Shown: positions 5,027 to 64,000, counted from the stretch's first letter. The stretch is 64,000 nt of DNA from Psammoneis japonica (GCA_008632985.1 QPGO01000203.1:62001-126000), one strand, 5' to 3'. Numbers and translations are program-made. Notes: a model not told the origin generated them from the letters alone.

Positions 5027-6074
5027 GTGCAAATCGTCAGCGTCAATGAGGGAGGCGATCCACGAGGACAACAAAACAAGCTGGTCAAAGGTCAAAGGTC
5101 GAGTCATTTAGTATACCGCGAGCATCATTCAGCAACTGAAACACATCGGTCGAGCTGGATGAAACAGTTCCATTTTCGTTTTAAAGACGACGACGCAGCT
5201 TCGAGTATTCCTCGTTCGTTATGGATGAGTCGTCCAAATGTTCCTGTTTCGTCATGTCTGAATTTGTGTCCCCAGGTTGTTTGTCTCTTCTTGGTAAGAT
5301 TCAACTTCATCTTGATTGCATACAAAAGCTTATCATTCTCTTGTGTCTTCTGAACAAGTCTTGTTCTCGAGCCCGTAACAAGACTCGCAGATCCGGTAAG
5401 AAAGGAAAACCAAGGTTCAGAGACGTCGAGAACAAAACTAGCATACAGATTTGCATCTTGGTGCTCAGGTGACGGGGGAGCATTGTCGGAGCGTCATAGC
5501 CACCCATCATTCGTGAGAAGATTCATCAGCATCAATTCCACGTCTCTCTTGCGAGATACGGACAGTTTCTTGCGGACAGATTCTAACCTCTTGCGAGCTA
5601 CCAACTTTTCCGCAATAACAACAAGAGTCTCTGCGGTCCTATTGACCTCCACAAAAGGCTTGGAATCGGAAACAAGGCCGTGATAACGTAGATTTTGGCA
5701 ATTCCCCAAATTCTAACATGGCAAAAAAACCACCACCACCTCTCATTTTCATGCACCCACGCATGTCCTTCCCTCCCTCGATTACAACTCGGCATGCCGG
5801 TCTTGCGTCGGCCCTTATCGAGGATGGCTGACGACGAAAATGCAATTTTTCGGCATTTTGACCGTGTCGTGTAACCCAAACACGCCTATAAAACGGGTTA
5901 TTTGACCCGCAAGGACAGCACCTTTGCCCATTTCAGTGCCATCGCTGAATCCGGCGTAACAAACTTAGTTGGAAACGACCCTGAGTTTACCGAGATCGGT
6001 CGAAAATGAAGGCGATATTCAAAAAGTGAGTATGCGTTGCATGCCTATGTTGTAAGCCTATTTTGGTGCATGAT
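5027..6074. repeat. Segment sharing two blocks with 2605-2995 and 4506-4858
   Basis: Direct sequence similarity to both blocks. The minus-strand reading frames are interrupted by stops. Confidence 0.8.
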
Positions 6075-6894
6075 GGCGATGCGAGCGCCGCGAAACGTCT
6101 TCAGTTTCCAGCTGAATTTTCAGAGCTCGTGGGGACCTCGTACGGTACGTAAATTCCTACGCGCGATCTTTCGAAGAATCGAAGCACTGGATCGCCAACG
6201 TCTGTACGTCTGTACTACTCAAACACGACTTCAGACTCGTCACTTTCAACTTTGCTTCTTGCTTGATGTATCATTGCGGCTGGATAGCGGTATAACACCC
6301 AACACAACCTCCACTACGCCACGAGCAACGCAACAAGAAGTGTCCGCAACGTGTACTCTGTGCTTTCTTGATCAGGGTCAAGATTTGCTCTCAGCGTTGT
6401 GTGCCGACCTTCAAACCCTGGCGGCCACGATTGAATATGAAAACAGGGACGAGTGCCGGGCGGTCCAAGTCAATGCCGTTACCGAATGCGGTTGTCCGCC
6501 CGTTGACGATTTCTACCGGTGAGTGCTCCATCTGCGATGGTGATACAGAGGCAGGCCGCCATCAAAAGAGACGATGAGCAAAACAAAGAACACTGTTCCA
6601 CCGTTTACATCTTCTGCTGAGTGGATATAAGGCAGATACGTGCCTTAGTGTCTTGGCTCTTGCTTTTCCAGGAACTCTCTCGAACTAAACAAGGGCACCA
6701 ATAGCAATCGCCAGTCGATCTTGGCCCACCCATGAAGGAGCCAACAGGAGCCGAGCTGCGAGTTGCCCAAGGTATAATCGTGTTGAGCCACACAATCCCG
6801 AGGACACCACTATCCCAACACGCGACAGAGACCAGTCAACGATCGGAAATCTCCCTTTCAAAAAGCAATGGCATGAAGAATTTTTCCTACTGAC

Positions 6895-7257
6895 TTATGA
6901 CTCATTGTCTTGCTGCTGTGAGGCTGCAACATCCTCGAGCCATTCCGAGTCGAGTCCGTGAGAGAATTGAGCCACGCGGGACGGGTCCATGGCGGGTTCA
7001 CCGGTGCAGGCTACACCGCCGCCATCATTATCATTGTCACCAAAAGCCGTCATGGACTCAATATACGCTTGAAACGACGGCGAAAACTCGGGGGGAGTGT
7101 AGTTGTGGTACTTGTCGTCGTCATTGATGCTCCGGGAGGCGCCTCGATTTATTGTACGGCGTCGTCGTGATAGACTCAGTCTTGTGCTGATCCAACCATT
7201 GCAAGAATCCAAACCATTCATAAGAAGCAATAAAATCCAAACGCAAGGCGAAGCCAT
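6895..7257 (-). CDS. Small unknown protein with signal peptide and possible plastid transit peptide
   Basis: MASPCVWILLLLMNGLDSCNG|W is followed by an S/R-rich stretch, like a diatom bipartite presequence. Confidence 0.5.
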   Translation of the reverse strand: MASPCVWILLLLMNGLDSCNGWISTRLSLSRRRRTINRGASRSINDDDKYHNYTPPEFSPSFQAYIESMTAFGDNDNDGGGVACTGEPAMDPSRVAQFSHGLDSEWLEDVAASQQQDNES

Positions 7258-7560
7258 AGTATTTTTCTCCTCTTGGTAATCGTTTCAGAAACAACACAAA
7301 CTGCCGTCAATAAGGGCTCGAGGCAACGCAACGACATGAAGAAAAATGAGGGTGCGCAGAAAAACAACTTCAACTTCTGACTCGCTTGACTCGCGACTAA
7401 CTCGACTACCGTATGATTTCGATGCCTGTCCTTCTGTCTGTTTGTGGTCATGACCTCCCAAATGAAGGCGAAAGGAACACAAACGAAACCACGACTACTT
7501 CATCCACTGTAGTACATTTGTTTTGAAGCTATCATTTACGCGTTGCTATTGTTCTCGGTT

Positions 7561-8906
7561 CTAGTTATAGCACCGAGAGATGCGGCACGACGTGTTTCTC
7601 GATCCCGGATTGGATTTTCTGGTTTCCCGCCATTTTCCCTCAATTTCAGCACGTGCTTTCTCTCCAACAATGTCACCCAAAGAATTGCGAAGCATTGCCA
7701 TGTTTTCCTTTAGTGCATGAGCTAAAGCACTCTCTCCAGCACTTCCGTGGTGGTCGTCTTGAACAGAGAAGGCTTTTCCTTGAGGAAGTGGCAAATCAAA
7801 TCAGGCTCTTTTCGCGTGCGCCCCAACACATTTGCCCACAAGGCATCAGGGACCAAAGACTTTCGCAACAAAAAGCTTCCTTTCTTTTTGCAATGATGAC
7901 AATCCTCGATTTCAGTGCATGCATTCTCTCCAACAATGCCAACCAAAAGATGACAAGGCATTGCTGTGTTTTCCTTTAGCGCACGAGCTAAAGCTCTCTC
8001 TCCAGCATCACCACACTGATTTCGCCGGACGCTGAGGAAATTTAGTGTGCGATTCTTTTGCAGCATCTTTCCAAAAGCTCTGGCACCTTTGTCGCCGATT
8101 CGATTGCTGTTGAGTTGCAAACTCCTGGTTCCCTTGTTCTGGGTGAGGCCTTTCCCGATGGCTCTGGCGCCTTCATCGCCTGTGCGATTCATTGAGAGAG
8201 AGAAATGACTGGAGCTTCATCATTCTCGGCAAGTCCCTTGAAAAGCTCTTGTGCACCATCATCTCCAATGTCATTGCCACGCAGAGAAAAACGTTTGACT
8301 GCACGATTTGTTTTCAACATTTCTCCAATGTGCTTTGCGCCCTCGTCGCCAATCTGATGATTGTGGTCAAGCCAGAGCACCTCGACTGAAGTGTTGTTCT
8401 TCAATGCCTCACACAGACACTTGGTGCCAGTTGGGCCAATGTGGTTGAAAGACAGCCCCAACTTTCTCAGCCGTGGCAGAGACGGGATCACTCGGCACAA
8501 CTGGCGCATCTCTTCATCTCCAACAATGTTTGTGGCACTGAGTTCAATCGACTCAACATTCGGAACTCTCTCATCGCCAAGATGTCTTGCAAATCATTTG
8601 AAGACAATGCCATTTTGTCAGAGGTGTCAAAGAGACAAGAAAATGAGTAAGCACCTGAAGAGGTCAGCGAGAGGTTTTCATCAAAGATAACAACAACGAT
8701 GTTGGATTCAGGATGCTTCGACGTTCGACCTTCTGCTTCGACGTTCCAGCAAGTTCGATCGTCGTAAAATCAGCGTAGGAATTGATGCGCGATTTCGCGC
8801 GATTGGATCTGGATCTTTTTCGCTCCAGCAGTTCCGCGGCGCGTCGCGAGGAGTCTGGAGGAGTCTTCGACGTTCGCTTTTTTCCAATCATTTCTTCAGA
8901 AGACAC
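7561..8906 (-). pseudogene. RI-type leucine-rich-repeat (NLRC3-like) gene, frameshifted, TpA-depleted
   Basis: Repeats of L.L..N.IGDEGA..I...L..N in ORFs 8189..8509 and 7722..8192, with a frameshift near 8190. An internal duplication (about 7640-7740 vs 7910-8010) is present. Neither ORF contains Tyr. Confidence 0.8.
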
Positions 8907-8969
8907 ATCACAAACCCACCGACGAGCGGCGGCGTTCTTGTTCTTGCATGGATCCGTTTTGTCGTCTTT

Positions 8970-10322
8970 ATGAAAAGAAAGATGTTTTATCTGCGTGCTT
9001 TGCTGCTGGTTCAGTTACTCCCAATTTTGGCGGCTGGGTTCTCGCTGACAACAACAGCGCGATTCTCATGCGGCTATTCTCGAGTAGTGGGAGAGAGACA
9101 ATGTCATCAACAGTATGCTCCCCAACAACCGCGATTTGCGCTGGTCAGACCAAGAGGCGCTACCGTATTGTCTTTGCTCTTTGCAAATCCAAACGACTCT
9201 TGTAAAAACGATCCTGACGTCTCGAATGAAAGCAACAAAAATAATTGCGCAGATCCGAATGCACACGACAAGCAGAAACATTCAGACCATGCAAAAGACG
9301 ACTCATCACTTCACCGTGCCGTTCATCATCACGTGGAACATCGAGCCTCGGAAAAGGGGGGAATTGAACTGAGTCGACTGGCGGCAGAAAAAGCCATCCA
9401 ATTTGTGGAAAAGGGGCGAGCGATTGATTTGGGATTGGAACGAGCTGCGGAACGATTCGGAGAACGTGCTACAGAAAGGGTGGGAGAGCGAGCGGTAGAG
9501 AGGATTGGAGAGAGAGCTGTGGAGAGAGTGGGAGAAAGTGTGTCGGAACGAATAGGCGAACGTGCGGCGGAGCGTGGGTTGGAACGAGCGGCAGAAAAGA
9601 TTGGAGAAGGGGCAGCTGAAAGAATAGCAGAGAGAGCGGCAGAGAGAGTGGGAGAAAGTGTGTCGGAACGAATAGGAGAAAGAGCGGCGGAGCGTGGCTT
9701 GGAACGAGCGGCAGAAAAGATTGGAGAAGGGGCAGCGGAAAGAATAGCAGAGAGAGCGGCAGAGAGAATAGGCGAACGCGGCACAGAGAGGATAGGAGAA
9801 CGGGTAGCGGAGCATGGATTGGAAAGAGCAGGTGAGAGAATCGGGGAGCGCGCTACTGCGAGGATGGGAGAGAGATCTGCTGAAAGATTTGGGGAGAGAG
9901 CCGCCGAGAGGATTGGAGAGCATACAGTTATTGCTGGACGAAAGAGTTTGAACGGAGTGGCTCGACCGTTGGCTTTGTCTATTCCAGAACGAGTGGCGCT
10001 ACGGATTGGTCGAGGATTGCTTATTGCACTGCCGGCACTTGGAGGTGTGTTTGCCCTGTATCTACTGAAAACAGACAGGGCGAGAGCAGGACTTGAACGG
10101 AAGCGTGGCTCGAAGTTGACCTCCGTGTTGTTTGGTGGAGCTGCTGCGACGGATGCAGTGGACGCTATTTGTCACTTTGCTATCGCTTATGGGGTTTTGC
10201 GCAAATTCTGCCATCATAAACTTGCCCAACTAGAAGAAGTCAGTCTCGGCTGTGCCTTCTTCTCAACACTCTGTGCTGTGGTGGGAGAGATTGTAACTTA
10301 TACAAACAGGAAGAAACGGTGA
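8970..10322 (+). CDS. Unknown protein: signal/transit peptide, ERAAERIG-type repeats, C-terminal TM helices
   Basis: 450-aa ORF with a hydrophobic N-terminus ending ILAAG|F, a 120-bp tandem duplication (9521-9760) and hydrophobic C-terminal segments. Confidence 0.8.
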   Translation: MKRKMFYLRALLLVQLLPILAAGFSLTTTARFSCGYSRVVGERQCHQQYAPQQPRFALVRPRGATVLSLLFANPNDSCKNDPDVSNESNKNNCADPNAHDKQKHSDHAKDDSSLHRAVHHHVEHRASEKGGIELSRLAAEKAIQFVEKGRAIDLGLERAAERFGERATERVGERAVERIGERAVERVGESVSERIGERAAERGLERAAEKIGEGAAERIAERAAERVGESVSERIGERAAERGLERAAEKIGEGAAERIAERAAERIGERGTERIGERVAEHGLERAGERIGERATARMGERSAERFGERAAERIGEHTVIAGRKSLNGVARPLALSIPERVALRIGRGLLIALPALGGVFALYLLKTDRARAGLERKRGSKLTSVLFGGAAATDAVDAICHFAIAYGVLRKFCHHKLAQLEEVSLGCAFFSTLCAVVGEIVTYTNRKKR

Positions 10323-10858
10323 CAACTGCTGAGGGTGGAAGCTTTGTGCGCGTAATACGGTCGACCGCAGCACCAAGGCAGATTTACCTGTTATCGGGAG
10401 GACAAAGAAGCCAACTGTGATGGCCCCGGCACCGGCCAAGTCCTCACCATGGCTTTTGGCCAGACGATCGAGATGTATGTATGTTTGTTTGTTTGATAGA
10501 TCCTCTCTCTATATACTAAAGCTACTTCTCTAGTAGTTACGGTAAACTCTACGCTAGAGCTAGCCTGTAGCTACTCTCTCTAGCTCTCTAGAGAGTAGCT
10601 AGAGAGAAAGATAGCCCATAGACTACCGCGGTAGACGGTAACGATAGAGTGGATGGAATGCGGTGCTTGAACCCGGAGGTCCACGAATCAATCGGTATCA
10701 TAAGTACGTACTTGAAGTACGGAGGACCCAAAAACTGACATGGGATTGAAAGATTGCGCAAGGATTGTGAATTCGCGACACTGGAAACTGGAAACGAAGA
10801 GACAAAAGCTGGAAGCATTGTATTACAAAAAAGAGATGAAAGAAACCGGAGGTCCAAG

Positions 10859-14181: not shown

Positions 14182-15705
14182 ATGGCATCAGAAGGCGCAA
14201 GCGATAGCGCTCCGGCTCCCCCAATGGAAAGGAAGCAGCCTCATTTGATGGCTCAAGATGCAAAGACAGTTGATCCCTCCAAACTCACGGCACTTTCTCC
14301 GGAAGTGGTATGTTTGACGACAGACAGACTCTTGTGAGGCTCGTAATTTCGCTCCAAAAAATGTGCTCACATTTTTCGCTCCGTCTTTTTGTTCTTACAG
14401 ATTTCTCGTCAAGCAACCATCAATGTCGGTACGATTGGTCATGTCGCACACGGTAAATCGACAGTAGTAAAGGCGATCTCGGGCGTTCAGACGGTCCGAT
14501 TCAAGAACGAATTGGAACGTAACATTACCATCAAATTGGGGTATGCCAATGCCAAGATTTACAAAGGCGACGCCAAAGATGACGACGGCGGCCATTACAC
14601 ATCCCGTGGATCCTCCCATGCAGATGTCTTTGAGCATAACGGTATTACTTACAGACTACGTCGCCATGTTAGTTTCGTTGATTGCCCCGGACACGATATT
14701 TTAATGGCAACCATGTTGAACGGTGCTGCCGTGATGGACGCAGCTCTCTTGTTGGTGGCGGGAAACGAAACTTGTCCTCAACCGCAAACCTCTGAGCATT
14801 TGGCGGCTGTTGAGATTATGAGGCTGCAAAACATTCTGATTCTTCAAAACAAGGTGGATTTGGTGAAACCGGATGCCGCCCTGGCTCAGCAGGAACAGAT
14901 CCGGCGCTTTGTGGCGGGGACAGTTGCGGATTCCGCACCGATAGTTCCCATATCCGCAGTGTTGAAGCACAATATTGATTGTGTCTGTGAATATTTGGTT
15001 CGGAAAATACCTTTGCCCCCGAGAGACTTTACCAGTGTCCCCCGACTCATTGTCATTCGATCCTTTGATGTGAATCGTCCCGGACAAGATGTGCGCGACT
15101 TGCAAGGTGGTGTTGCAGGAGGGTCGATTCTACAAGGCGTTTTGAGAGTGGGTGATGAAATCGAAGTGAGGCCCGGTATTGTTACCAATAAGGAAGACTC
15201 CGACGGAAACAAGATTATGGTTTGCTCTCCCATTTACTCTCGAATCTCGTCGTTGTACGCTGAATCGAATGATTTGCAATTTGCCGTTCCCGGTGGATTG
15301 ATTGGTGTGGGTACACGGATTGATCCTACACTCACTCGTGCTGATCGTTTGGTGGGGCAAGTGCTGGGTCTTAAGGGACAACTTCCACATGTTTTTGCTG
15401 AAATCGAAATATCATACTATCTCTTGCGAAGGTTGTTGGGAGTCAAGACATCGGACGGCGGAAAGCAGGCCAAGGTTCAGAAATTGACCAAGAATGAAAT
15501 GCTCATGGTCAATGTCGGATCGACAGCCACGGGAGGCCGAGTCCAAGCTGTCAAGGCTGATTTGGCCAAGATTGCTCTCACTACCGCGGTTTGTACCCAA
15601 GAAGGCGAGAAGATTGCACTTAGTCGACGTGTTGATAAGCACTGGCGGCTTATTGGTTGGGGTCAGATCCGGAAGGGTACTAAGCTTGACGTAATTGAAT
15701 CGTAA
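14182..15705 (+). CDS. EIF2S3: Eukaryotic translation initiation factor 2 gamma subunit
   Basis: Exon 14182-14307, intron 14308-14400 (GTATGT...TACAG), exon 14401-15705. Motifs [30 protein letters not shown] and [11 protein letters not shown]. Confidence 0.98.
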
Positions 15706-18672: not shown

Positions 18673-21168
18673 TCATCTGACAAATATGTCACGCTTTTCT
18701 TTCTTTCTCTGGGCCACATATCCTGGATCGTTCGTCATTGCCCAAAAGAAATGATGACGCCTCTCCTCCACCCACCAGTTTTTGTTGCTCCCTCTCAGGT
18801 TGGCGCCGTTTGTAGTTGTCTTTGAATATCTGTCTCTCCAATTTGGGTTGATTCTGTCCTTTACCGACACCGGTTTCATGGGGGGTTCCGAAGGGGGTCC
18901 CGTGGCTGATGTGGATGCGTCATATTGGCTACTAGGTGTTGTTCTCGGCCGCGAATGATGCCGTCTCGGATCACGATTCTTGTAATTCCTCCAGTAGTCC
19001 ATTCGGTCGTTGTAGTGGCTGCGGCCTTTTCCATGGCTCGTTTTATGACCTGACCAAGTGCGCCAGTGATAATTGCTCCACCTACCGTGCTTCCCCTTGT
19101 GCCAATTGTAGTGATTCCAACCCTTCCCTCTGCCCTTTCCTTTGCCGCGGCCTCTTCCATACTTGGGACAAGAATACACCCATTTGTACCAACGTATTTT
19201 ATTTCTCCAATAGACAGGTTGCAGGCGGTAGCCGCAACCCTCACGTTTTTGTTGACCGGCGGGTTTTGGCGTAGGTTTGTTAGTGCATCTAAAGGAAGTT
19301 GGTCTCCTTGTCGGCGTCCGAGATGGAAATAACGGATATAGTGTCGGCTCTTCAGTCGGTGACTCCACTATCGGCTCATCTGTGGTTGGCGACTTTTCTG
19401 CTGGGGTTGGTTTCGCGGACGGCTCAACAGTCGGTGGCGCTGTTGATTCTTCAGAGGGCGCCATCGTTGCATCGATTGGTGTGGGTTCTGATGTCGGTTG
19501 CTCTGCCGTTGTTGATTCTTCAGAGGGCGCCATCGTTGCATCGATTGGTGTGGGTTCTGCTGTCGGTTGCTCTGTCGTTGTTGATTCTGCAGTGGGCCCC
19601 ATCGTTGCTTCGTTGGGTGTGGGTTCTGCTGTCGGCTCCGTCGTCGCCTCTCCAGAACGACTCGGTGCCAATGTCGTTTCCTCTGTGGGTATCGTTGTTG
19701 ATTCTGCAGTGGGCCCCACCGTTGCTTCGATTGGTGTGGGTTCTGATGTTGGCTCCGTCGTCGCCCCTTCCATTGTGGGGGTTCCTGTCGGAATTGGCGT
19801 TGTTGAAGATACCGTAGGATTTTCGGTAACCCCAGATGCATTGGGTGATTCTGTAGGACTTTCGGTAACCTCGGTGGTTTGCTTCTCGGTTGGAAATGGT
19901 GTTTGTTCCGGGGTAGGTTCTGGGGTTGGTGCCGGAGTGACCTCAGTGGTTTGCTTCTCGGTTGGAAATGGTGTTTGTTCCGGGGTAGGTTCTGGGGTTG
20001 GTGCCGGAGTGACCTCGGTGGTTTGCTTCTCGGTCGGAAATGGTGTTGGTTCCGGGGTAGGTTCTGGAGTTGGTGCAGGAGTGACCTCAGTGGTTTGCTT
20101 CTCGGTCGGAAATGGTGTTGGTTCCGGTGTTGGTGCCGGAGTGATTAGCGGTGTCGGCGGGGGAGTTTCTTCGCGCGTTGGAGAAGAAGTTGAGCCTCGG
20201 ACTGGGTTTGTCGGCTCCGATGTCGGTGCAAGGGTTGAAGATATAGTGGGTGAAGGAGTTTCCTCTGGTGATGGCGGCGGTGTTGGGGATATCGTTGGAC
20301 TCGGCGTGGGCTCAGGAGTTGGAAGGGGCGTCGGGGGCGGCGTTGCAGCTATTGTCGGAGAAGGAGTAGCTAATGTTGGTGGAGGTGTTGGGGGTATTGT
20401 TGGTTCTGGCGTGGGTGGAGGAGTTGGAGGCTCTGTGGGAGATGGTGTCGACAAAGTAGGTTCAGGTGTCGGCGGCGCAGTTGGAGGTGGAGTCTGCTGT
20501 GGTGTTGGAGTTCTGGTTTCACTACAGCATTCTCCTATTCTCCCGAACTCCTTCACCTGGTCACAGGTGAATCCGCTATTGTCTCTGTTGCCATTGAACT
20601 CTAACTCACCGCAGTCAGTAGCAACTTCATCGCCGTCTACCCTCAACACTACCATTTTTTGTGTATTCGGGACGACTTGACCCCCTGGTTCGTCACATAT
20701 ACGGCAGGATCCCGGAACAGTTCTGGTGTTTGCACATCCACAATATATCCCGATTGTATTGTGTATAGCATCGCATGTTTGGGACGTGGTAGCGACATCA
20801 CTGTAGCCAATTCCTCCCCATTCGATACAGCGACGCTCGAACGTGACAAGTCTCAGCAAATCAGGCACGTTACTTCCGTCTTCGCATAAGTCACAGAATT
20901 CCTTTTCTGGAGTACACCCGCAAACTTTTACCCCTGCGTAAAATGCAGATTTGCATTCCGACTCTGTAAGCCCCCCTCTCCCAATGAGTTCTTGATATTG
21001 ACTGCACGTCAAGGTGTCGCCGGGGAAAAGTAGAACGTCATTGAACGCAGGGTCGATAAGAGTACCGTCAGGGCATAGCGTTGAACATTGGCCGTTCACA
21101 GCAGTACGGAAAAGACTTGATATAGAAACCAAAAAGAATATGTTCGCCTCGAAGCGCCGCAATCCCAT
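18673..21168 (-). CDS. Secreted mucin-like protein: Cys-rich N-terminal domains, Pro/Thr/Glu repeats, basic aromatic tail
   Basis: ATG at 21168 (MGLRRFEANIFFLVSISSL...), CxxCxDG and CGC modules, TPEPT/PTEKQTTEVTPAP repeats, and a C-terminal G/K/R/W/Y/H-rich region. Confidence 0.85.
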   Translation of the reverse strand: MGLRRFEANIFFLVSISSLFRTAVNGQCSTLCPDGTLIDPAFNDVLLFPGDTLTCSQYQELIGRGGLTESECKSAFYAGVKVCGCTPEKEFCDLCEDGSNVPDLLRLVTFERRCIEWGGIGYSDVATTSQTCDAIHNTIGIYCGCANTRTVPGSCRICDEPGGQVVPNTQKMVVLRVDGDEVATDCGELEFNGNRDNSGFTCDQVKEFGRIGECCSETRTPTPQQTPPPTAPPTPEPTLSTPSPTEPPTPPPTPEPTIPPTPPPTLATPSPTIAATPPPTPLPTPEPTPSPTISPTPPPSPEETPSPTISSTLAPTSEPTNPVRGSTSSPTREETPPPTPLITPAPTPEPTPFPTEKQTTEVTPAPTPEPTPEPTPFPTEKQTTEVTPAPTPEPTPEQTPFPTEKQTTEVTPAPTPEPTPEQTPFPTEKQTTEVTESPTESPNASGVTENPTVSSTTPIPTGTPTMEGATTEPTSEPTPIEATVGPTAESTTIPTEETTLAPSRSGEATTEPTAEPTPNEATMGPTAESTTTEQPTAEPTPIDATMAPSEESTTAEQPTSEPTPIDATMAPSEESTAPPTVEPSAKPTPAEKSPTTDEPIVESPTEEPTLYPLFPSRTPTRRPTSFRCTNKPTPKPAGQQKREGCGYRLQPVYWRNKIRWYKWVYSCPKYGRGRGKGKGRGKGWNHYNWHKGKHGRWSNYHWRTWSGHKTSHGKGRSHYNDRMDYWRNYKNRDPRRHHSRPRTTPSSQYDASTSATGPPSEPPMKPVSVKDRINPNWRDRYSKTTTNGANLRGSNKNWWVEERRHHFFWAMTNDPGYVAQRKKEKRDIFVR

Positions 21169-21720
21169 CTTGACACCCCGTTGTTGACAGCAATGTTCTT
21201 GCAAAATCGAATTTTGGAAGAGATATGGAAGGGTAAACAGCTTGAAAAATGATTCCCTGCATCGCGCATAACATAACAGAGGCAATCTGGAATCCTGCGA
21301 AAAAGAGGCAGGCTGTGCACGACTTAACAGGTCATTCTTCAAAGTATTTATTGGGCGTTTATTTAACCGAAGTCATAAGTGTACATAGGGGCGGACAGGT
21401 GAGATCATGAAAAAGGTCACACGTGACATCATCCGTTCCGCGTTGTGCCTCATCATCACATCTTGAATCTCTGTTTCAAACATCGCTCTCTCCACTCTCC
21501 AGAGAGAGTAGCTCTCTCTCTACTCTCTACCTAGATTCGAAAGTAGGTACAGTACGTGTGTAGTACGCTCTACTAGAGAGAGCTGAGTCACGGAGAAAGG
21601 AGAAGAAGAATAGTCTTCGGTCTCAAGTCATCCAATGGCGTCTCACATGACCACCCAAAACACGAGGATCCTGGTTACCGACGCGAGTTTTCGCTCCAAC
21701 TTGAGAAAGAATTCCACATT

Positions 21721-27999: not shown

Positions 28000-30070
28000 G
28001 GTTGATCTCCAGAATAAATTGTGTGAAAAAATGAGTGGAAGCTGGGGGACGTCTTCGGAAGTGAGACTGTCGAAGAAAGTTACGTAGAATTTGTACTAAA
28101 ACAGTCTGTCAATCAGTGCGATTGGGTATTTGGGACCTCTGGACAGATCCTACGTGTTTTCTTGTGCGTACAAATTGTACTGGGAAAACCCCCAAACGCA
28201 CTGGCGATCAGACCGCCTTCGACGCTCTCACTTCCAAAGACGCCCCCCAAAGCGCAGAAAGAGCGAGCGAATGAAAGGGTGGACGGACCGTGAAGCACGC
28301 GAACCTATGAATGGTACGCATTGCAATGGCACCCCTGCGATTGCGAGTGCGAACGTGGTCCTCTTCTTCCCGTCCACTCTAGCTCTGGCAGCCAGCAGTA
28401 GAGACTTTTCAGAAGTTCTGCTGGCTTCAGCACATTCATTCACGAATCTGATTCACGATGATTCACAGGGATGTGAAGAGGAATCACCACACAATTTGCA
28501 TCTTTGGAGCATCTTGTTCTTGTCCCCTGCTGCACCTGTCCTCCTCTCTGTGCTGCTGTGTTGTGCAACCTCAAGAGAGGTGCCAGCACCCTTCGTCTTC
28601 CATGTGAATCCTTGTGTCCCAAGTGGCTGCGAGACACTGGCCAGCAATGCACATGCCAGCAATCTCACAGCATGGCTTTTGCTGCCGCCAACCATCTCAG
28701 TGACATCCCACCCAACAGCAATCTTCTGCATTGCAGTCCTTCATTCCTCAGCAATTGGCATCTGTGCATTCTTGTGCTTGTGGGCTGTCTTCTGTGCATT
28801 TTGTGAGCCCCACGGAGAAGCATGTCTGCTGCTGGTGATCTCGCCACACTTGAAAGTTGATCTGGAAACCCTTGAGAAGTTTGCCAAAGCCTTTGCAGCT
28901 GCAGGCTCACTTCTGACACTCCTCCAAGTCTTTCAACACCCAACTGCAGTGGAAACCACATGTCCCATGGTGCTCATTCATGCAGTTCTTGATCAACTGA
29001 CCAGCACAACAGACCATCATCTCAGCACACTCATGGTGCTCATCCGCGCAGTTCTTGATCAACTGACCAGCACAAAATGACCATCATCTCAGCACACACA
29101 TGCCTCCTGCTGCTGCTTGATTTCAGCATCATCATCCAAGTGCTTTCAATTTAAGTTGGAGCAACCCCTTTTGTGACAAACTTGCACACCACTGGCTGCC
29201 TTGAAGCTGAGCAAACAGACTGAGCTGTCCAACAACCCAGGAAGTGCCAAACTGAACAAAGGTCATTTTGTCATGACTGTCCAAGACCTCGTCAAGTCTG
29301 GCAAGAAACCTTTTGTCATCTCAAGGACATTGATCGCAAAGCAGCACATTTGTCCAACTGTCTTTGTGCCTTTGCAGATTGTGACCTCCTTGACTGTCTT
29401 TGGAGTGCTGCACCTCCATTTGGTGCAGAAATGTGGTTTGTTGTTGTCATGTGCAGTGCAAAGAGGAGTTGCTTCACAACTTGCATCTCTTCAGAGCATC
29501 ATTGATCCTTGTGTCCCAAGCAGCCTCCAGCTTCAAGCTTGCTCATCCTTGCCAAAGCATTGCCAAATGCTCACAAAGCTTGCACAGCTGGACCATGTGT
29601 TTGCAAAAATGAGACAACCACCATGATCACCCACCCTCCCATTCTTGTGAGTGCCACGACAAGACAGCCCATCACAACAAGAGCCTTGTGGGCAATCAAA
29701 GATTGGGGCATGCTTGGTGGCATGGTCGCCCAATGCAATGATGCTTTGTGCTCTGACCTGTGATCACAATGATGTGCTCTCTCTCAAATGAACAAACAGA
29801 ATTGGCACAGCCAATTCTCTGTCAGATGTGACAAACAAAAAACAAGAGTGGCCAAGGTGGAGCTGCTGGTTCGGACATTTGTCCAATGTTCAACAAATGG
29901 CAGAAACAACAACATTGGCACCAAAGTCAGGAGCAGGACTTTCGTGGTGGCTTCATCAGCAGCCAGCTGCTGTTGTTGACATGGTTGAGGTTGTTGCATT
30001 AAAAAGATCCAAGTGGTGGAGGAGGACAGGCAAGTGGGCTTGATTGATTGTTTTTTTTTCATGTCAGCTC

Positions 30071-30072
<2 letters not shown>

Positions 30073-30106
<34 letters not shown>

Positions 30107-30126
30107 NGGGGGGGGGGGGGGGGGGG
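30073..30126. repeat. (CT)n microsatellite, an N and a poly-G run (probable assembly join)
   Basis: Seen directly, with N at 30107. A second (AG)n lies at about 36092-36113. Confidence 0.9.
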
Positions 30127-31959
30127 TGAGATGTGAAGATTGCAGCAAGACAAGAGGTTGCCAAGTTGCGTGATCGATGGCACACACCCTCCATTTGTTG
30201 CTCTGTGTTTGTCAGAACTTTGCATCCCACTCCCTCTTGAGGATGTGTGCTTTGGGTCCAGCATGGGCTGAGGATTCCATCAAAGGTCAAGCAGGTGGCA
30301 GAAACAAGCACACCACATGCTGTTGACACCATGGCAGCAGGAAGACTCTGAGAGTCATGTCCAAACAATTGTTCTCATTGGTTTTTGGAGGCAGAGAGGG
30401 ACAAGGGGAGCCAGCAAGCACAGTTGGGGCATGTGGCTGTGAGGACATCATTTTGCAGATTGCAGAGAATGGTGAAAAGCTGTCTGTGCCAGCAATTCAA
30501 AGACAGAGGGTGCGCTCATTGTCCCCAGCAGTTGCCACATGCTGCTGTGAGTTGTGCCAATGGCACACACAAACACACAACTGGTTTTGACAAACAACCA
30601 AAACATCATGAAAAAAAGAGAAAGAACATGACAGTGGGTCAGCAAAGTGGTGGCAAGAAAGGCACAAGTCAAACTTGCAGCTGGGGGGCAGAGAGCAGCT
30701 GTTGCAACTTGCAGGCTGACAAAGCAGCATGTTTCTTCAACAACATTTTTTCACTGCCCTCCCCTTTCTCCTGACTCCTGTTGTTGGGATTTCATGGCTT
30801 GATGGCTGCTGATCTGCGCTGGTCTTGCCAATCCCTGAGCTCACTGCATGGTGGATTGCAAACTCTGCTCCATGCCAGTTGTCATGTTGCCCTGGTGCAG
30901 AAGCCAAAAAGTGAGCATGAGACCCACCTTCTTTATGATGAGCTTCCCCAAGATTGCTTTGTCAATCTCTGACATGGTTGCACCACCCAATGGATGTTCA
31001 GGCTCCTCCACAACATTTTCTGAGATGCCAGTGCCTGCATCTCTAGCCTGAACTTAGAACACTCTTCTGACAGTGTTGGGTGTCAGATCGTCACACAACA
31101 GGTGCGGAGTTGTAGAGCACAACGTCTCACACACCATGGTGGTGCATCATTTTTTGTGTCAGCATCAGTTGTTCACAGTTCGTTCACGGTGTGTGCAAGC
31201 AAATCTACAATGGTCTGGCCACCTCTGCACGCAACATTTTCATCTGTGTGACACAGAACAGTGAGGAAAGCTTGTGTGACAGATGATGTTGAGTTTGGGC
31301 AATGCAATTTTCTCATGTTCATCACCTGCAAAAGGAAAAGGGGGGAAGGAGGGGATTCAACCATTTGAGCACACAAAAATTGACCATGTGGTCAGGGCCA
31401 GAGTTTTGTTGGCTTCTTCCATGTCATCTGGGGTGGGATTGCTGCAGGCTCAAAAGGTGTGGGTGCACATTGCAACTTTTTAGGGTGGCCCACCCTGAGG
31501 GTGTGCCACCAAGCTGAGCACCCCAGCTTGGTTTTTGCCCAAACCCCAGGCCAGCTGCCAGCCCCAGGAGGTGCTCTTCTCCCAGTGTGGTTTGGCTGTT
31601 CTCAAGCTGCACCACATTGATTCAAAGCCTGCTGCTGCACATGGGAAGGGCCAGAGGGAGAAGAAAAACATGCAAGTTTTGGCTGCTTGCTTTGGACCTT
31701 GTGTTGGTCATGAGCAAGCTGCATGACAAGACAGACACATGTCACACTGTTTGTCTTGCAGCTCCAGGAGCCTGCATCATTCTCAAGTTTGATGTGTCTC
31801 ATCTGGCAGCTTGGCAGCTTGGCAGACTTTCTTTGTTGCAGCCTGGCAAGTCATGGGGTGGGTGGCGCTGTTGTCAAGAGCCACTCCTCTGCAGGAGAGG
31901 GACAGGCACAGAAAAGTTTTGCAGGAGCTCTTCTGCCAATCAATGGCCAGTCAGGGCAG

Positions 31960-33120
31960 ACCAGACTGTGGAGATTTTCTTTTGATGAAAGCCAAGCAGC
32001 CACAGCAAGAGAACAATCATCAATGGCCGCAGCAGCCTGGGCAGTGGGATTTTCCTTTGATGATGGAAAAGCCAAGCAGCCACAGCAAGAGAAGATGCTT
32101 TTGTGATGGAGCATCAAATGGACAAAGCCTGGGTGTGCAAAGAGTTGTTTGCCCCAGCTCCAGCAAGCCATGTGCTCCAAAGGTGACACTGCACACATGT
32201 TTGTGCACCAACATGCCTCTTGTTTCAGGCCCTGTGTGTTGATGAGCAAGCTTCTGAGAGAAGAGTGAGAGGTGCAGCTGCATCACTGTGTGATGCTGGA
32301 GAGACTCATTGCAGCTGATGCATCTCAGGTTTCATGCTCAGCATGATGCTCAGTGACTCTTCTTGGGCCCAACCTCACTCAGAGCTTCTTTGTGTCAACA
32401 ACAAATTTTTCCACAGCACTGACAAAACAGCTTGAGGAAGCCTGCATGGAACAGGAGCTCTGACCAGCAGCTCTGGCTTTGACTTGAGGGTGGGATCTTC
32501 ACAGCTGTGGCATCTGTCAAGCTGGCTCTCTCAATTGTGAGGGGCTGTGGTCATGTGTGGGGTTGGGCAGTGCAGCCAGTTTGCTTGCACTCCTCATTGA
32601 TCATGGCACAAAGCACTGTGTCACATCTGCAAAGATGAGGGTGACTCTTGTGGGTGCTGGGCTGGTGTTCTGAAGGTCTGGGTGCACCCCCTGGGACACT
32701 GAGGAAGGGCTCAGCATTGTGCTGGCAGCAGCAGCTTGGCATGCAGTCTTGGCTGCAGCTTGGTGTGTGGGCAGCACTGTTGCTGCCAGGAGCTGGTCTG
32801 TGGGAGGAGGGGGGGAAGCAGGCAGAAAACTTTTTCTGGAGCCATTTTGTCAGTGGTGAGGATGGCCTGGACACTGAGGATTTTTGATGGAAGCCAAGCA
32901 GCCACCACAAGAGAAGATGATTGTGATTGAGCATCTGATGGACAAACAAGCCCAGGCACAGAGAGCTGTCTGCACTTGGTTCCAGCAAGCAGAGTGCTCC
33001 AAAGGCAACACCTTGTGTGTGCACTTGTGTGCCAACAAGCTTCAAGCTGTGAGTCACAAAAAAGCCACCAACCTCCATGAGTGCAGCAAGTCTTTGGTGT
33101 GCTGTGTTTGCCTCTGTTGA
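31960..33120 (+). pseudogene. Decayed gene with duplicated CCCH-zinc-finger-like segment
   Basis: About 31970-32220 and 32875-33045 are similar. The second reads AVCTWFQQAECSKGNT, like C-x7-C-x5-C-x3-H. Confidence 0.4.
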
Positions 33121-33299
33121 GTGTGGATTGAAAGGAGGCTGCAAATTTGAGATGAGTTGACTCATCTTTGCAAAAAACAAGGTGTGCATCATCCGCTTTG
33201 ATGGGACGCCAATGCAAAAATCTTAAAACCAGCACTGTTGCAAGCACTGGACAGAAAGAGAAACCCAACCAAAGTCATTTCAAAATGAACATAAAAATG

Positions 33300-35950
33300 C
33301 TGCAGTTGACTGGCACTGAGCAAAATGCATTGATGATTTTGCCCTTGACATCCTGTTTTGCTTGTTTGACTTCACTTGTGCCCAAACTCTGCATGAGAGC
33401 AAAAATGTCACTCAAGGCTCATCACCACCCCACTTGGCTTCATTCACTTTCAAGTCAAAAACAGCAATGGGTTGTGAAGTTTGTCATCAACTGGCCACCA
33501 ACATGAAAATTTCTTTGTCTGTGTTTGTGACAAATCGGAGTGGTGGTCACTGCTGTCAAAAATGCCTCTCTGTGTGGTGAGTCACATTGCTTTGGCAATC
33601 CATTCTCAGATCCAGCTGGGTGGAGCAAGTCTGCCACACACTTCTTGTCCCACCCATCATTGATGAGAGCAGCCTTGGCTGCCTTCCCTCCATCAGCTTC
33701 TGTCACATGAAGCCCTCTGATGGCATTTGGTTCTGAAAACTGTGCAAGCTTTTCAAGGGAGTTTGCCATGGTTGAACAAAACTGCTCCAGTTGAGAAACA
33801 GGCAGAAGCCTCAATTTCATTCAAGATGCTGTGAATGGCTGTGTGCTGTGTTGCATTGGAACAGTGACACATGTTGAGGCCCTGCAATTGTTGGCGACAG
33901 TTTTGATTGTCAGCTGTGATCAAGAAAAAAAGCAACTATTCCATTGAGCAACATGCTCACCCCAAATCCCAAAGCAGAGTTGGGCAACATGGGCATGCTG
34001 TGTCTCACACTTGTCCACTGCCCATGCTTTAGAAAGTTCAAGTCAAAATTGCTTGTCATGCCCAAATCCACAGACAAATCCAAAAAGAGCCAGTGTGTCC
34101 ATCTTGCTGTGTTGTCCATTCCATGGGGGCAAAACATGCAAGCCCACCAGATTGATCTGTGGGTGCATTGGCATGTTTGAGGCAAGTGCAACATCTCACT
34201 GTTTGAGTTGTGATCCATGCACAGCTGAAAAGCAAAACATGTTCTGTCTCACATGTTTGGCATTTGCTGGAACTTCATTGTCTTGATGCAGTTGCTCATG
34301 TCAAACAGCAACACCTTTGTGCCCCATGATGCATCCAAAATTGACATGTCTTTTTTGACAATGAGTGCTCTGCAAGGCTCCACTTGATGAAATTGCATGC
34401 TGAAGCCATCAATCTTGAGCTCTGCACAGACTTGGGGGTCATCAGATTGATGATGCACAGCAGATCTGTCTCTGAATGTCACAAAAGGCACTTCTGTTTT
34501 TGATTTTCTTTGGTGGAGATGTGTCCTGTCCAAGTCCCATGCCAAGCTGCTTTCTCACAAAAAAGGGGCTGCCTGCTGGCAGCCTTTTCTTCACCAGTGC
34601 ATGGAGACAACACTGGCAGCTCCAAAGACATCAAAAGCAGCAGCAAGGAGCCTTTTCTCCTGTGCAATGCTCCCTCAATTGACATGCTTTCACAAGCCAG
34701 CTGCTTGTTCCTGCAGAGCCAACATCATGAAAACAACTCTGTTGCTCATCTGACAGGCTGAAAGGTGCTTGGATGTCATGTCAATGTCAACATGCCCTGC
34801 CATTGATCCAAGGCAAGTCAATGATGGGTCAAGCAGCTGACAAAACGAGGATTCTTTGATTGGCAAATGAGGCACATGGCATTGCATGATGGAGTGGAGA
34901 GCTTTTGCCCTGTGCTGTGGGTCCTGCATCCCTGGTTGTGGCAGCCCAACACATGATCCATTGCCCATTGGTCTGTGCATGTCGACATGGGGCAGAGGCA
35001 GCAGTGGTGTTTGGGCCAAAACACCAACACTCCACCACTCTTCAACATGCATGCAGCCAATGACTGGCCAACAAGGCATTGTCCTTCCAAGTGCACACTT
35101 GTCTGCCCCCTGGTCCACCTGCTCTTTGCTTGTTGCTTGGGTCAACATCACCATTGTCAGTGTGTTCTTGAGTGTTTTGACAGCCTTTTTTGTGGGGGTT
35201 TTTGTTGCCAGAACATTGTGGAAAAGAACAAACAAAACACCACTTTTTCCAAATGCAATGAGCACAGCTGCCATGAACTCTGCCACAATGCTGCTCCCAT
35301 GCCTGTCTGGACAAAAGAGAACAGCAAGCCTCACTTCTTTGGGCAGGTTTGATGATGACTCATTGGCCTTGGTTTCGTGCTGGCAATCAATGGGTTGGTG
35401 TGGCAACTCATGTTTTCACCAAATGGCTTGCAAGCTTGTGGATGATGAAGCTCTGCATCTTGCCATTGACCACATGCATTGTTCAGAGCTGCTGGTGATG
35501 TGGCCAGTCAGACATGAAACATCAGCTCATCAAATGTCCCTTCTTCCTGCCACCAGACAAGGACAGTCAGGAACCATCCATTGAGCTGACAGCATTGACA
35601 TTGAAAGAGGGGTCATTGATGACTCTCCTCTTGGCAAAGATTGTGCAGACATTGGTGGTGCACTGGTGCAACACAAGAAACAGCAGCCTCTCCAGAGACA
35701 ATGACCAAGCAAGAATGTGAGCAGCTGTGGAGAATCATCTGCTGGCTTCAGCCAGTGTGCCCCTGCAGAATTCTGCAGGCGAATGAGTTCAACATGTCAG
35801 CCGCACTCAGATCATGATGTCAACAAGGTGTCAAGAAATCTTTGCACACCCCTTGGATCTTTTAACCCAACAACTTCAACCACACACAAACAACAGCAGC
35901 CATCAGATGATGAAGCCACCAGGACAAAAATCTCATTCTCCTGACTTTGG
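33300..35950 (-). pseudogene. Hypermutated relic of a long unknown gene (VEEWW and GHVDIDMTS motifs)
   Basis: Chain of minus-strand ORF pieces (34690..35406, 34249..34545, 33910..34218, 33455..33820). The 5' part is paralogous to 37800-38070. Confidence 0.45.
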
Positions 35951-37559
35951 TCAATGTTGCTGTGCCTGCCATTCACTGAAAAAATGGCTGGACAAACATC
36001 CAAATGAGTGGCTCTGCCTCAGATGCTTGTGTCTTTTTGCATGTCACACGTGGTGGAAAATCAGCTGTGCTGATTCTGTCTGTTTGTTCAAGAGAGAGAG
36101 AGAGAGAGAGAGAGCAGAGCCTTGCCTTTGCAGGTCTCAAAGCAGCCCCCAGTTCTGACAGGAGCACATTGAGTCAAAGCATCGTTGACTTCACTCTCTT
36201 TTGACTCCAGCACCAACAGAATGAATGAGAGCTGCCACATCAGAAAATGGAGCTGAGTGATCAAGAGACAGCACTCTCTGATGTGGGGTGCCAACAATCT
36301 CTGGGAACATCTTGTCCCCCACAGCCAAGGGTCCCTGGCTCAAAACTGAGCATGCACTCTGCTCTTGATCCAAGACATTGCCATCTTGACAAGTCTAAAA
36401 TTGTGAGAAATTTGGAAACAACAAAAGCCAGTCAGCCAGTTTTGACAAATTTCCACCTCTGCATGACACAAGTGGTGGTCTTGCTCATGGGCACTCCCAA
36501 ATTCTGAGCATTGTTTGCCTCATTTTCCTCTCCACTCAAGTGCTCTCACAAACAATGTGTGCCAAGTTTGATTTTTCTCTTCTCTAAAATTTTGTGCCTG
36601 TGGCTCACCTTTTGCATTTGCGCTGTTGCACCAGTCACCAGTGCTGCAGCTGGCTTCTCATTGAAGACTCTCTCATTGAAGACTCCCTGGAGACACAAGC
36701 TCCAGTCCTGCACAATGCACAAAACAAAACACTCCATCTTTTGAGCACAACTTGCATCAGCTTCATGTGCTGAGGCTGTTCATCAAAGACACTTGTGTGT
36801 TCTGGCTTTTGCATTTGATTGGAGCATCGGTGCTCAGACATTTTTTTCCCATTTTTGTTCAAGTTTTCACAGGGTGCACTGTGTCACAAATTTTTTCTGA
36901 AGAAACAATGCAGCTGGCTGCACATCAGCACACTCCCATTGCAGAGAATTTTGCATTGCAAGCAGATCACTGCTGTGAAACACATGTGCAGAAACATTTT
37001 GTGTCAACCTCCAAACATGCAATGACACATGAATCTTCAAAAATTTTGGTTCAAATCATCCTCTGTGTTGCAACTCTCATTTCCCACAATGAAAAAATGT
37101 TGATTGCACACAAAAACAACAACATTGTGACACTGAGACACAAGTCTCATCAGTGTTGCAAAACATCAGAATTTGGACAAATCCACACTTTTGGCAGTGA
37201 AAGCTTGTTTGCAAGTCAGAGACCCCATGCAAAAATTTTGCAAATGTTGTTTTTGAGCACCACTGAGCTCACAACAGCAAAGTCATCAAGCAACAAACAT
37301 GCAAACAATCACCAACAGAAAATGAGGCAATTTTGCAAACATGTCTCCTCTCCCCCACATTTGAAGCACATCATTTCCATTTTTTCCCTGGGTGCACTCT
37401 TTGGACATTGAAGAGTGTGCCCAGCCTGTTTTTGCCACTGTGAGTGAAGAAAACAGAAAGTCTTTGAAACAGGCAGAAGACCCCACACACAGAAATTGTG
37501 TGATCCAAAACACTCTCCTGACATGTCACAGCCAGCACAGCAGTGTGAGCCCCCACCTG

Positions 37560-38300
37560 GAGCTGGAGTGTGTCTGACACACAAAGAAGTGACAAGAGCA
37601 ACTCATGAAGAGCATCTCACATGGGGCAAGATTTCAATGATGTCCTTGAAGCAACGGGGGAAAGGAGATCTGGTGGTGAAGATGACACAACACAGTGCTG
37701 CTGCTGCTGTGATTTGTTGGGAACTCACAAAGGAGCAGCAGATGCGATGGGCACTTGGCTTCATGCAGCAGCCAACAGGTTGGCACGACAACATGCCACA
37801 TCTTGGTTGCCATTGACAACAGATGTTCCTTCCTGCCACACCAGACGAGGACAGCCAGGAACCATCCCTTGAGCCAACAGCATGGACATTGAAAGAGGGG
37901 CCATCGATGTCCTTTTTTAAAAAAAGATCGTGCGGACATTAGTGGTGTGTTGGCACGACAAAAAGAAATGATGGCCTCCCTTGATTCGACCACGCGAAAA
38001 TAATGTGAGCGGGAAAGGTTCAGTACACCCCCCGTACAGTACGTAGAATTCTACAGGCGAATCTTTGAGGTCAACACTGAAAACAGTATGGTAGGCTCTG
38101 GTATGTTCATATCGGTACAATTGTCAGTACGTAGAAGCGAACGATGTTGCCCGGTAAGTGACGTTGTCTTTCCGGAATACAATATACGGGGACAAAGAAT
38201 AATAAACAAAATTGAAAATTTGAAATCAGAAGTTCTTCCTCCACCGACAAGACTAACTGACGACCTGAAGCATGATGCACATCATGGCACTTTGTACGGA
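37560..38300 (-). pseudogene. Paralog of 35400-35950 straddling the right edge of the depleted domain
   Basis: Clear nucleotide alignment of 37825-38062 with 35540-35784. SPVEFY vs SPAEFC and TTNVRTIF vs TTNVCTIF. Confidence 0.7.
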
Positions 38301-62523: not shown

Positions 62524-64000
62524 TGTTGGAAATGGTGAATTAAAAGTTCAAACACCGAAATCAGATAGCACGAAGAAGACGCATGCGTCAGCGCTCATCA
62601 TGTGCTCCACGTGAAGCACTAAAACTGCCGATGGAAGCAGTCATGTTGTTCTCTTTTAACTCTTAGAAAGCATTGTGATAACAAGCTTGTCTATTTTAGC
62701 CTCAGGATCAGACCTTAGAGGACTGAGGTGGCTCTGGAATGGTCACCAGAAGGACAAATTACAACAGTTGAAAGAGAACAATCCAGCTGAGAGCTGTGAA
62801 AAGAAAGCAAGAAAGAAAAGAGTCGCTCTCACGGTGTGTGAGACATTTTGCTGCTTTGCCTTTTTTATCATGAGTGGAAGAGGCAGAGGAAGAACTGGCA
62901 ACAGAAGCCAAGGAAGAGGACCCTCAGGAAGGGGAAACAAGAGAGCGGCAAGCAAAGCCACAAGGGCATCAATCATTGTGTCTGCTGTGTTGGAAGTGCC
63001 AAGCAAGCATCTGATTTTCAGATTGCTGCTGAGTTCATCATCAACTACATTAAGAAGACTTGTGAGTTTGGAAATGACATTGCAACTGCACTCAACACTT
63101 GCACTCCATGCGACATGAGTTCCAAGAAGCCGACTTTGCAGGTCAGCTTGGCTGGAGAGGACAAGGCAGAAGAGGTGTTGAGCAAACAGTGTGAAATTGA
63201 ATTTAAGACAGAATTTGATGCTCACATTAAGAGGACCCAGACTCATGAGAACAACCTTGTCAAGGCTTGTGCTTTGCTCTGGGAGAGATGCTCCAAGGCC
63301 ATGAAGAACAAGATTCAAGCAAGAACCGAGTTCCAAACCAAAATTGAAAACGATCCCATCGAATTGCTCAAGGCCATTGAGGAGCATGCATTGAACCATC
63401 AAGAGCACAGGTGTGACATGGCCATCATCTCAGATTCAATGAGAGCTGTGCTGGAAACCAAGCAGAAGGAGAAGGAGAGTCTCCGAGATCACACCAAGAG
63501 ATTCAGGGTTGCAAGAGACATCATAAAGTCTCACATTGGAGGACCAATTGTCCTTACCAAGGCAGTGCAAAGCATGTCAGAACATGACGAGCACAATGCA
63601 GATGCCATCAAGAAGTGTCAAGAAAAGGCGTTCAGCCAATTGATGGGTTACGTGCACTTTGAGAATGTAGACCAGTGCAAGCATGGATCAATTCTGACAG
63701 GATTGAACACCCAGCAGTCCCTCAAGAATGACCAACATCCCAAGTCTGTTGCAGAAGCCAACACGGTGTTGAGCAACCACACTTTTGACTGCATTGGTCA
63801 GCCTGATGACAACCGCGACAGGAACAATTGAAGCAACAACTCTGACTCCAAGAAACAAGAAGAAAGCCAAGAAATCATGATGTCCTTTGCTCAGTTAGAA
63901 GGCAAGTGTTGTTGCTGTGGCAAGGCCAGACACAATTCCAACAAGTGCTGGGAAAGGCCAGGAAAACCTCAAGCAGAATGGGCCATCAACAAGGCCAAAG
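62524..64000 (+). mobile_element. Left end of a Ty1/Copia (diatom CoDi-like) LTR retrotransposon with degenerate gag
   Basis: Candidate LTR TGTTGG(62524)...ACAACA(62766). gag starts at ATG 62870 (MSGRGRG), frameshifts, then reads GSAKQASD, LLWERCSKAM, DPIELLKAI, KQKEKESL.D.TKRF. In-frame TGA at 63829-63831, then zinc knuckle CCCCGKARHNSNKC. Confidence 0.88.

Follow-up and report, generated by a model that had tools for sequence, protein, structure and literature searches.

Near-complete loss of TpA from a leucine-rich-repeat pseudogene that keeps most of its CpG in the diatom Psammoneis japonica

The stretch of DNA analysed here, referred to below as the window, covers 64,000 nt of one strand from the pennate diatom Psammoneis japonica (GCA_008632985.1, QPGO01000203.1:62001-126000). 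Near its left end lies the broken remnant of a gene for an RNI-type leucine-rich-repeat (LRR) protein, within a tract that is almost devoid of the dinucleotide TA. Two other tracts of the window are also purged of TA; one is a 9.5-kb block in its middle part and the other is a piece of a Copia-type retrotransposon at its right end (Table 1). Divergently from the LRR remnant, an ORF at 8691-10322 (+) encodes a long GERAAER-type repeat array and a C-terminal hydrophobic segment, and matches no Pfam family above cut-off.

Table 1. Features of the purged tracts and codon states of the LRR remnant compared with its related copies
Feature	Position	Strand	Basis or remark
TA-purged tract, frameshifted RNI-type LRR pseudogene	7570..8647	-	dinucleotide counts, CA/TG excess
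Frame A, 134 aa, four LRR_6 units, without TA or Tyr, has KHIGEML	8189..8593	-	Pfam LRR_6
Frame B, 164 aa, three LRR_6 units and a tail with EIEDCHHC and LICHFLKEKP	7722..8216	-	Pfam LRR_6
Start ATG of the family	8611..8613	-	window frame from this ATG stops after 41 aa
Frameshift 1, CT run, +2 nt relative to related contigs	8566..8572	-	2 contigs in X1 and 2 in X2 without the 2 nt at 8566
Frameshift 2, GA run and flank, +2 nt (8202, 8208) relative to one related contig	8194..8208	-	contig comparison
Internal duplication, two copies, 82.7% identical over 104 nt	7638..7741, 7904..8007	-	self-comparison
Frame B aa106, C of EIEDC			window TGT; related copies TAT
Frame B aa142, C of LIC			window TGC; related copies TAC
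Frame B aa68			window TGT; related copies TAT
Frame A aa77			window CAC; related copies TAC
Frame A aa74			window TGG (W74); related copies TAC
Frame B aa107, H of EIEDCHHC			window CAT; related copies CGT (Arg), CpG decay in window copy
Frame A aa79			window CAT; related copies CGT (Arg), CpG decay in window copy
Block purged of TA (16 sites, o/e 0.03) and CG (45 sites, o/e 0.08)	28400..37917, 9.5 kb		
Copia-type gag-like ORF, 329 aa, open	62842..63828	+	homolog P0298 carries RVT_2

The LRR remnant is divided between two reading frames, both of which score above the Pfam cut-off of 23.4 bits for LRR_6 (51.1 bits, E 7e-14, for frame A and 36.8 bits, E 3e-9, for frame B). Its repeat units consist of 28-29 residues of the form LxxLxLxxNxIGDxGA. 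In these respects it resembles RNI-type LRR proteins (Pfam LRR_6; RanGAP/NLRC3-like repeats), but it differs from them in its two frameshifts, its lack of Tyr and its damaged core positions. If the two nucleotides at 8566 are taken out, the open frame from the start codon of the family grows from 41 to 140 aa, and if 8202 and 8208 are also taken out, it remains open for 295 aa, to a stop at 7722. The damaged core positions of frame B are T12, T30, C68 and M86, where homolog segments have I, L or V in 70/73 to 47/56 cases. Because its frame stops at 41 aa and core positions are damaged, the tract is regarded as a pseudogene of the LRR_6 family. Protein relatives in the database reach at most 46% identity in a longer-length search; no relative from the same species appeared in a near-length search, and no further member of the LRR family was found within the window. 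A sequence-only reading of this DNA had noticed a Tyr-less LRR ORF with the strings EIEDCHHC, LICHFLKEKP and KHIGEML, all of which are present; Tyr is absent from the 298 aa of the two frames together.

The same reading had pointed to a lack of TA in the midst of frequent CG, and the counts agree with it. The 1078 nt of the LRR tract contain exactly five TA, at 7711, 7723, 7977, 7989 and 8043, all in the part up to 8043 and none in 8044-8647, so that TA o/e (observed/expected) is 0.07 vs 0.49 over all 64,000 nt. There are 44 CG (o/e 0.71; 0.96-1.01 elsewhere in the window), and the two CG-containing strings quoted in that reading, GTCGCCGATTCG at 8091-8102 and CCTCGTCGCC at 8342-8351, are there. 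CA and TG are in excess (o/e 1.50 and 1.36, respectively). Measured against the o/e values of long ORFs, the tract has TA -30.3, CG -15.4, CA +23.8 and TG +12.3, and the deficits (TA -30, CG -15) are roughly equal to the combined excess of CA and TG (+36). AA steps are not depleted (o/e 1.32), nor are AT and TT, and the GC content does not differ from that of the flanks (0.48). Two general biases were rejected on these counts, GC-biased gene conversion on account of the unchanged GC content and the undepleted AA, TT and AT, and Pol-eta-type WA mutagenesis on account of AA.

The TA-free gap from 8043 to 8648 measures 605 nt and ranks eighth by length in the window; all seven that exceed it lie inside the single block at 28.4-37.9 kb. 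Among 1008 background sliding windows of 600 nt, taken with the three purged tracts excluded, TA counts start at 2, with a 5th percentile of 11 and a median of 23. The left border of the LRR tract is abrupt, with nine TA in the ~72 nt of 7496-7568 and the next one at 7711, and the right border is softer, with ~21 TA per kb in 8648-9300. Four of the surviving TA are shared between the two copies of the internal 104-nt duplication (7711/7977 and 7723/7989).

The contribution of coding content was estimated by simulation, in which the amino-acid sequence was fixed and codons were sampled in 5000 runs from the usage of 11 control ORFs within the window. Frame A was predicted to contain 14.9 +/- 3.1 TA and contains 0, and frame B 15.9 +/- 3.4 and contains 4. 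None of the 5000 simulations was as poor in TA as the LRR frames, and the control ORFs themselves have TA at 0.56-0.95 of their own simulated values. The scarcity of TA in these frames is strong evidence for a purge beyond coding bias. The absence of Tyr alone is weak evidence, with Tyr at 1.3% in homologous LRR segments and a probability of ~0.02 for finding none in 298 aa. His and Cys account for 3.4% and 3.0% of the LRR frames, vs 1.7% and 1.3% of the aligned parts of 29 homologs.

Contigs from public DNA runs were compared with positions 6000-10500, with 80% likeness as the lower limit. X1 contigs are identical to the window, with 0 differences, over 6295-7521, 7842-8076 and 8627-8950. Inside the LRR tract the window sequence is matched by a listed contig for 7842-8076 only; this match has a depth of 72, next to ~61-70 in the identical single-contig flanks, and takes in five converted sites. 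Besides these, several contigs diverge from the window by ~10-17%; as many as 4-5 of them cover one place, and a variant can be common to as many as 4-5 distinct contigs. Summed contig depth is not a copy number, and therefore only 'several' related copies are claimed. These contigs are assumed to be paralogs belonging to one genome; they may instead stem from a second strain present in the sample. The suspicion of the sequence-only reading that the gene is multicopy is borne out by these several relatives, at least 80% alike, and so is its picture of a normal neighbourhood, since the flanks of the tract are not TA-purged and are matched by identical single contigs.

Between the window and the related contigs there are ~250 differences, from which the best-supported 40 were analysed. 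At 14 of these 40, the related copies have TA and the window has CA or TG, and the reverse is found at 1 (binomial p = 0.001). Intact, expressed relatives equally free of TA and with the same His and Cys residues had been named as the outcome that would speak against the reading; the opposite was found, as the related copies carry both TA and Tyr. CG is present in the related copies and absent from the window at 7 of the 40 listed differences (6 TG/CA transitions and 1 transversion), and the opposite holds at 4. A naive null predicts 9.9 TA-creating changes in 40, and 14 are observed (p = 0.075). Since this enrichment is weak when taken alone, the case rests on the asymmetry, on the sites with known polarity and on the gag test described below.

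Polarity was taken from 29 distant homologous proteins. At aa12 of frame B the codon is ACA (Thr) in the window and ATA in its relatives, and the homologs show I in 51, L in 15 and V in 4 of 73 cases; at aa30 (window ACC, Thr; related copies ATT) they have L, V or I in 78/88, and at aa86 (window ATG, Met; related copies ATA) in 47/56. Because the distant homologs have Ile, Leu or Val where the related copies read ATA or ATT and the window reads ACA, ACC or ATG, TA is the ancestral state. The homologs at these core positions, together with the related contigs lacking the frameshifts, identify the window copy as the broken, derived one. Furthermore, the 14 TA states of the related copies create 0 stop codons when changes that share a contig are read together. 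At the 13 polarised transition sites of the LRR tract, the window has, on the plus strand, CA at 8 and TG at 5. At the codon level, the proposal of the sequence-only reading that His and Cys replace Tyr is supported at the Cys of EIEDCHHC, the Cys of LICHFLKEKP, aa68 and aa77, and not at H107 and H79, both of which correspond to Arg. The His of KHIGEML is absent from the 40 listed differences.

The Copia-type gag-like ORF provides a second measure of the same change, with references from other genomes. The tract that contains it, 62760-64000, has a TA o/e of 0.14 and a CG o/e of 0.21, and represents the 5' part of a Copia-type retrotransposon that runs past the window end. The ORF has 2364 relatives at E <= 0.001, with identity up to 57% among the 150 listed. 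A consensus Tyr was defined as Tyr in at least half of the 150 representatives, which come from other genomes. At 15 such positions the ORF has Tyr at 1, His at 8, Cys at 5 and Phe at 1, whereas at the other consensus positions 103 of 123 residues are kept and 20 lost. Conversion of TAY to CAY or TGY has been highly selective here and has affected both strands, while the rest of the element is well conserved. The idea that a preceding purine decides between His and Cys is not supported at these codons, as a purine precedes 4 of the 8 His and 1 of the 5 Cys. In a Pfam scan of five ORFs in 62.0-64.0 kb, one passed, an HA domain at 62021-62359, which lies outside the purged tract.

The 9.5-kb block has lost both TA and CG, with coinciding and sharp borders for the two, an o/e of 1.89 for CA and 1.85 for TG, and an unchanged GC content of 0.48. 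Since TAA and TAG are absent, long spurious ORFs run through all of its frames. Of 52 ORFs of 28.0-38.2 kb scanned against Pfam, none gave a match above the gathering cut-off; below it were Beta_propel (18.9 vs 22.4 bits) and DUF2838 (19.4 vs 25.2). A search for direct and inverted repeats found no LTR pair in 27.0-39.5 kb. The block is probably a heavily converted transposon. A single N lies in it, at 30107. It is adjoined by a gene for a 2OG-Fe(II) oxygenase of the prolyl-hydroxylase type (PF13640, E 6e-9) at 26672-27835 (-), and nothing ties this gene to the TA process.

A linked duplication of 2.7 kb in the window (54048-56747 / 59293-61740), 93-98% identical, is not purged. Its 98%-identical stretch of 1.4 kb is untouched, and its two copies differ symmetrically in TA. 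Being duplicated is therefore insufficient to trigger the process. An ORF of unknown family lies in this segment, at 54999-55994 and 60256-60990. This two-copy gene (55.0-56.0 / 60.2-61.0 kb), whose TA o/e is 0.27, was considered as a further case of the same phenomenon and rejected for its lack of a CA/TG excess.

In the LRR copy, the loss of TA is nearly complete and CG is only mildly reduced, which means that TA conversion outruns CpG decay. The decay of CpG driven by 5-methylcytosine (5mC) is similar to the TA process in that both lose a palindromic pyrimidine-purine step to CA/TG. However, CpG decay acts on CG, whereas the process in the LRR tract acts on TA and leaves most CG in place. 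As 44 CG are kept at an o/e of 0.71, 5mC-driven decay cannot explain the loss of TA there. Apparent transitions from CpG to TpG or CpA are seen at six sites of the window LRR copy, and CpG decay accompanies TA loss in the two transposon-like tracts (CG o/e 0.08 and 0.21). The earlier claim that the TA process is separable from CpG decay is supported as a difference in rate (0.07 vs 0.71) rather than as complete independence. The LRR copy is the informative case, because in it the TpA process is seen without heavy CpG loss. Methylation of diatom transposons is treated in a published article (PMC9998398).

The sites that escaped hint at a flank preference of the TA process. In the LRR tract, the context of the five survivors is invariably TTAG/CTAA. 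When the three tracts are pooled, YTAR is found at 17 of 29 independent survivors vs 342 of 2084 background sites (p = 3e-7), and RTAY at none of the 29 vs 621 of 2084 (p = 3.5e-5). The survivors are mostly of the YTAR form (TTAA, TTAG/CTAA and CTAG), and in the rest of the window no TA context is rarer than TTAA (49/2084). RTAY sites would accordingly have been struck most and YTAR sites least. The ratio of RCA to YCA is 1.26 in the 9.5-kb block vs 1.01 elsewhere, and tentatively suggests that the changed base is the one preceded by a purine or followed by a pyrimidine; this RTA/TAY rule foretells the changed base at 5 of 6 informative LRR sites and fails to do so at the gag Tyr codons.

In the LRR copy TA was lost in a definite direction, on both strands and within the confines of the tract, and a local DNA mutation process is the cause to which this loss points. 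We consider it probable that the lineage of the dead LRR copy underwent conversion of TpA to CpA or TpG, and that the Copia-type element and the 9.5-kb block underwent the same conversion together with a loss of CpG. On this reading, one copy of a multicopy RNI-type LRR gene would have been broken by two frameshifts in short dinucleotide runs. In the lineage of this copy, TpA would have been changed to CpA or TpG, that is, by A:T to G:C transitions on either strand, and roughly 30 of ~35 expected TA sites would have been taken out in this way. The remainder of the copy would have stayed ~90% like its nearest relatives, with most of its CpG kept. The same conversion, joined by CpG loss, would have stripped the Copia-type retrotransposon and the 9.5-kb block. 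Such a conversion could be an enzyme- or chromatin-targeted DNA process aimed at silenced or repeated DNA, in which TpA would serve as a palindromic site for a mutagenic modification or for attack by a deaminase, independently of cytosine methylation.

A close counterpart is repeat-induced point mutation (RIP) of ascomycete fungi, which changes C:G to T:A at CpA and thereby creates TpA. RIP consists of confined, dinucleotide-specific transitions on both strands; it strikes repeated DNA including duplicates of host genes, spares the flanks and kills genes. The process in the LRR tract is like RIP in being a regional, dinucleotide-specific transition hypermutation of both strands, but unlike RIP it turns A:T into G:C at TpA and TpA is lost, the opposite chemical direction. 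Since A:T becomes G:C at TpA, cytosine deamination cannot yield this change. With regard to the duplication trigger of RIP, the LRR tract does coincide with a multicopy segment, yet the linked 2.7-kb duplication of 93-98% identity is unaffected. A second counterpart is A-to-I deamination, for which ADAR hyperediting and deaminases of the TadA/ADAT type show a 5'-U preference. The LRR process may be likened to it in the net change of A to G beside a 5' T, but it differs in acting on both strands, in being fixed in genomic DNA and in a host pseudogene, and in sparing AA. Against a hyperedited RNA copied back into DNA, with A to G on one strand, stand the changes on both strands: 8 CA and 5 TG among the 13 LRR sites, and similarly 8 His and 5 Cys in the gag ORF. 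A third is 5-hydroxymethyluracil in dinoflagellate DNA, a thymine modification reported to favour the TpA step; we know of no mutational purge that follows it. The papers found that mention both diatoms and 5-hydroxymethyluracil were, to judge by titles, work on a dinoflagellate (Symbiodinium). A literature search turned up no account of TpA being purged from diatom repeats, and a look-up of terms in PMC2806351, bioRxiv 10.1101/2025.10.24.684338 and 10.1101/2022.06.24.497555 met with none in the passages that these terms lead to.

Several other explanations deserve consideration. First, the LRR copy could have been purged elsewhere, for example in repeat-rich silenced DNA, and then duplicated into its present gene-rich site, which we hold to be possible but unlikely. 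The single-copy X1 contigs stop at 7521 and resume at 8627, so that the borders of the TA-poor tract nearly coincide with those of the repeated segment; the insertion of a piece purged beforehand would leave the same picture, and the right border is soft. On the other hand, no insertion marks such as a target-site duplication are evident at the LRR tract and no donor is known, and the two transposon tracts are sharp-edged as well, which an in-situ targeting of defined elements fits equally. If the copy was purged elsewhere, the process would not be one that acts beside intact genes. This alters the place of action and not the specificity for TA or the separability from CpG decay.

Second, TA might be hypermutable throughout the genome, so that a pseudogene drifts neutrally while selection keeps TA elsewhere. 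The window-wide TA o/e of 0.49 and mildly high CA/TG values (1.13-1.17) are in its favour. Nevertheless it is improbable, as TA is more frequent outside long ORFs than inside them (o/e 0.66 vs 0.49), and TA at synonymous sites and codon junctions is common in the 11 control ORFs, with 142 synonymous NTA codons and 199 T|A codon junctions per 4593 codons (3.1 and 4.3 per 100). Nine TA also stand in the 72 nt just outside the LRR tract, and the gag ORF has lost 14 of 15 Tyr vs 20 of 123 other residues while its 329-aa frame is open, which is too selective for slow drift.

Third, the direction could be the reverse, the related copies having gained TA by RIP-like C to T change at CpA and the window copy being the unmutated one. 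Pairwise differences as such carry no direction, and RIP does turn CA/TG into TA. We regard this reading as very improbable, however, since the three core LRR positions are Ile, Leu or Val in both homologs and related copies and Thr, Thr and Met in the window, the 14 TA states bring no stops, it is the related copies that are in frame and the window copy that deviates in composition, and the Tyr of gag is a consensus of 150 representatives from other genomes. Finally, that the tract is a working gene with TA-avoiding amino acids and codons, for which one could adduce the low Tyr content of LRR_6 repeats (1.3% in homologs) and the mutual dependence of repeat units, or else an artefact of assembly or base calling, is scarcely credible given that ~15 TA per frame are still expected at fixed amino acids, that two frameshifts and non-conservative core changes are present, and that contigs of accurate reads at single-copy depth reproduce 7842-8076 including its five converted sites.

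Granted that TpA conversion took place in the lineage of the LRR copy, a more specific proposal may be made, which is speculative and of low probability in our view: the diatom might mark silenced DNA by a second, possibly heritable, modification at TpA, mutagenic as 5mC is. Candidates for such a mark would be oxidised thymine (5hmU, 5fU) or a modified or deaminated adenine. It would be laid down independently of CpG methylation and could spread to copies of host genes, and over time its targets would lose TpA, and hence every Tyr codon, TAA and TAG. Among them, the LRR pseudogene would be one that bears the TpA mark but not the CpG mark.

If the phenomenon is genome-wide, it would be a targeted hypermutation with a chemistry opposite to that of RIP and different from the deamination of 5mC. 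A new DNA-modifying or deaminating activity would then have to exist in diatoms, which are major marine primary producers, and silencing would have a second footprint besides CpG depletion, by which silenced DNA could be dated and mapped. The phenomenon also matters for annotation, as purged transposons without Tyr codons, TAA and TAG give rise to long spurious frames and may escape profile searches.

Two further genes of the window were noted. An 899-aa ORF at 18673-21372 (-) is rich in Cys towards its N-terminus, includes a long array of Pro/Thr/Glu-rich repeats of mucin-like appearance, and has no Pfam match. The eIF2-gamma gene at 14347-15705 reaches no more than 92% identity with proteins in the database, its best named matches including Seminavis, Nitzschia and other diatoms.
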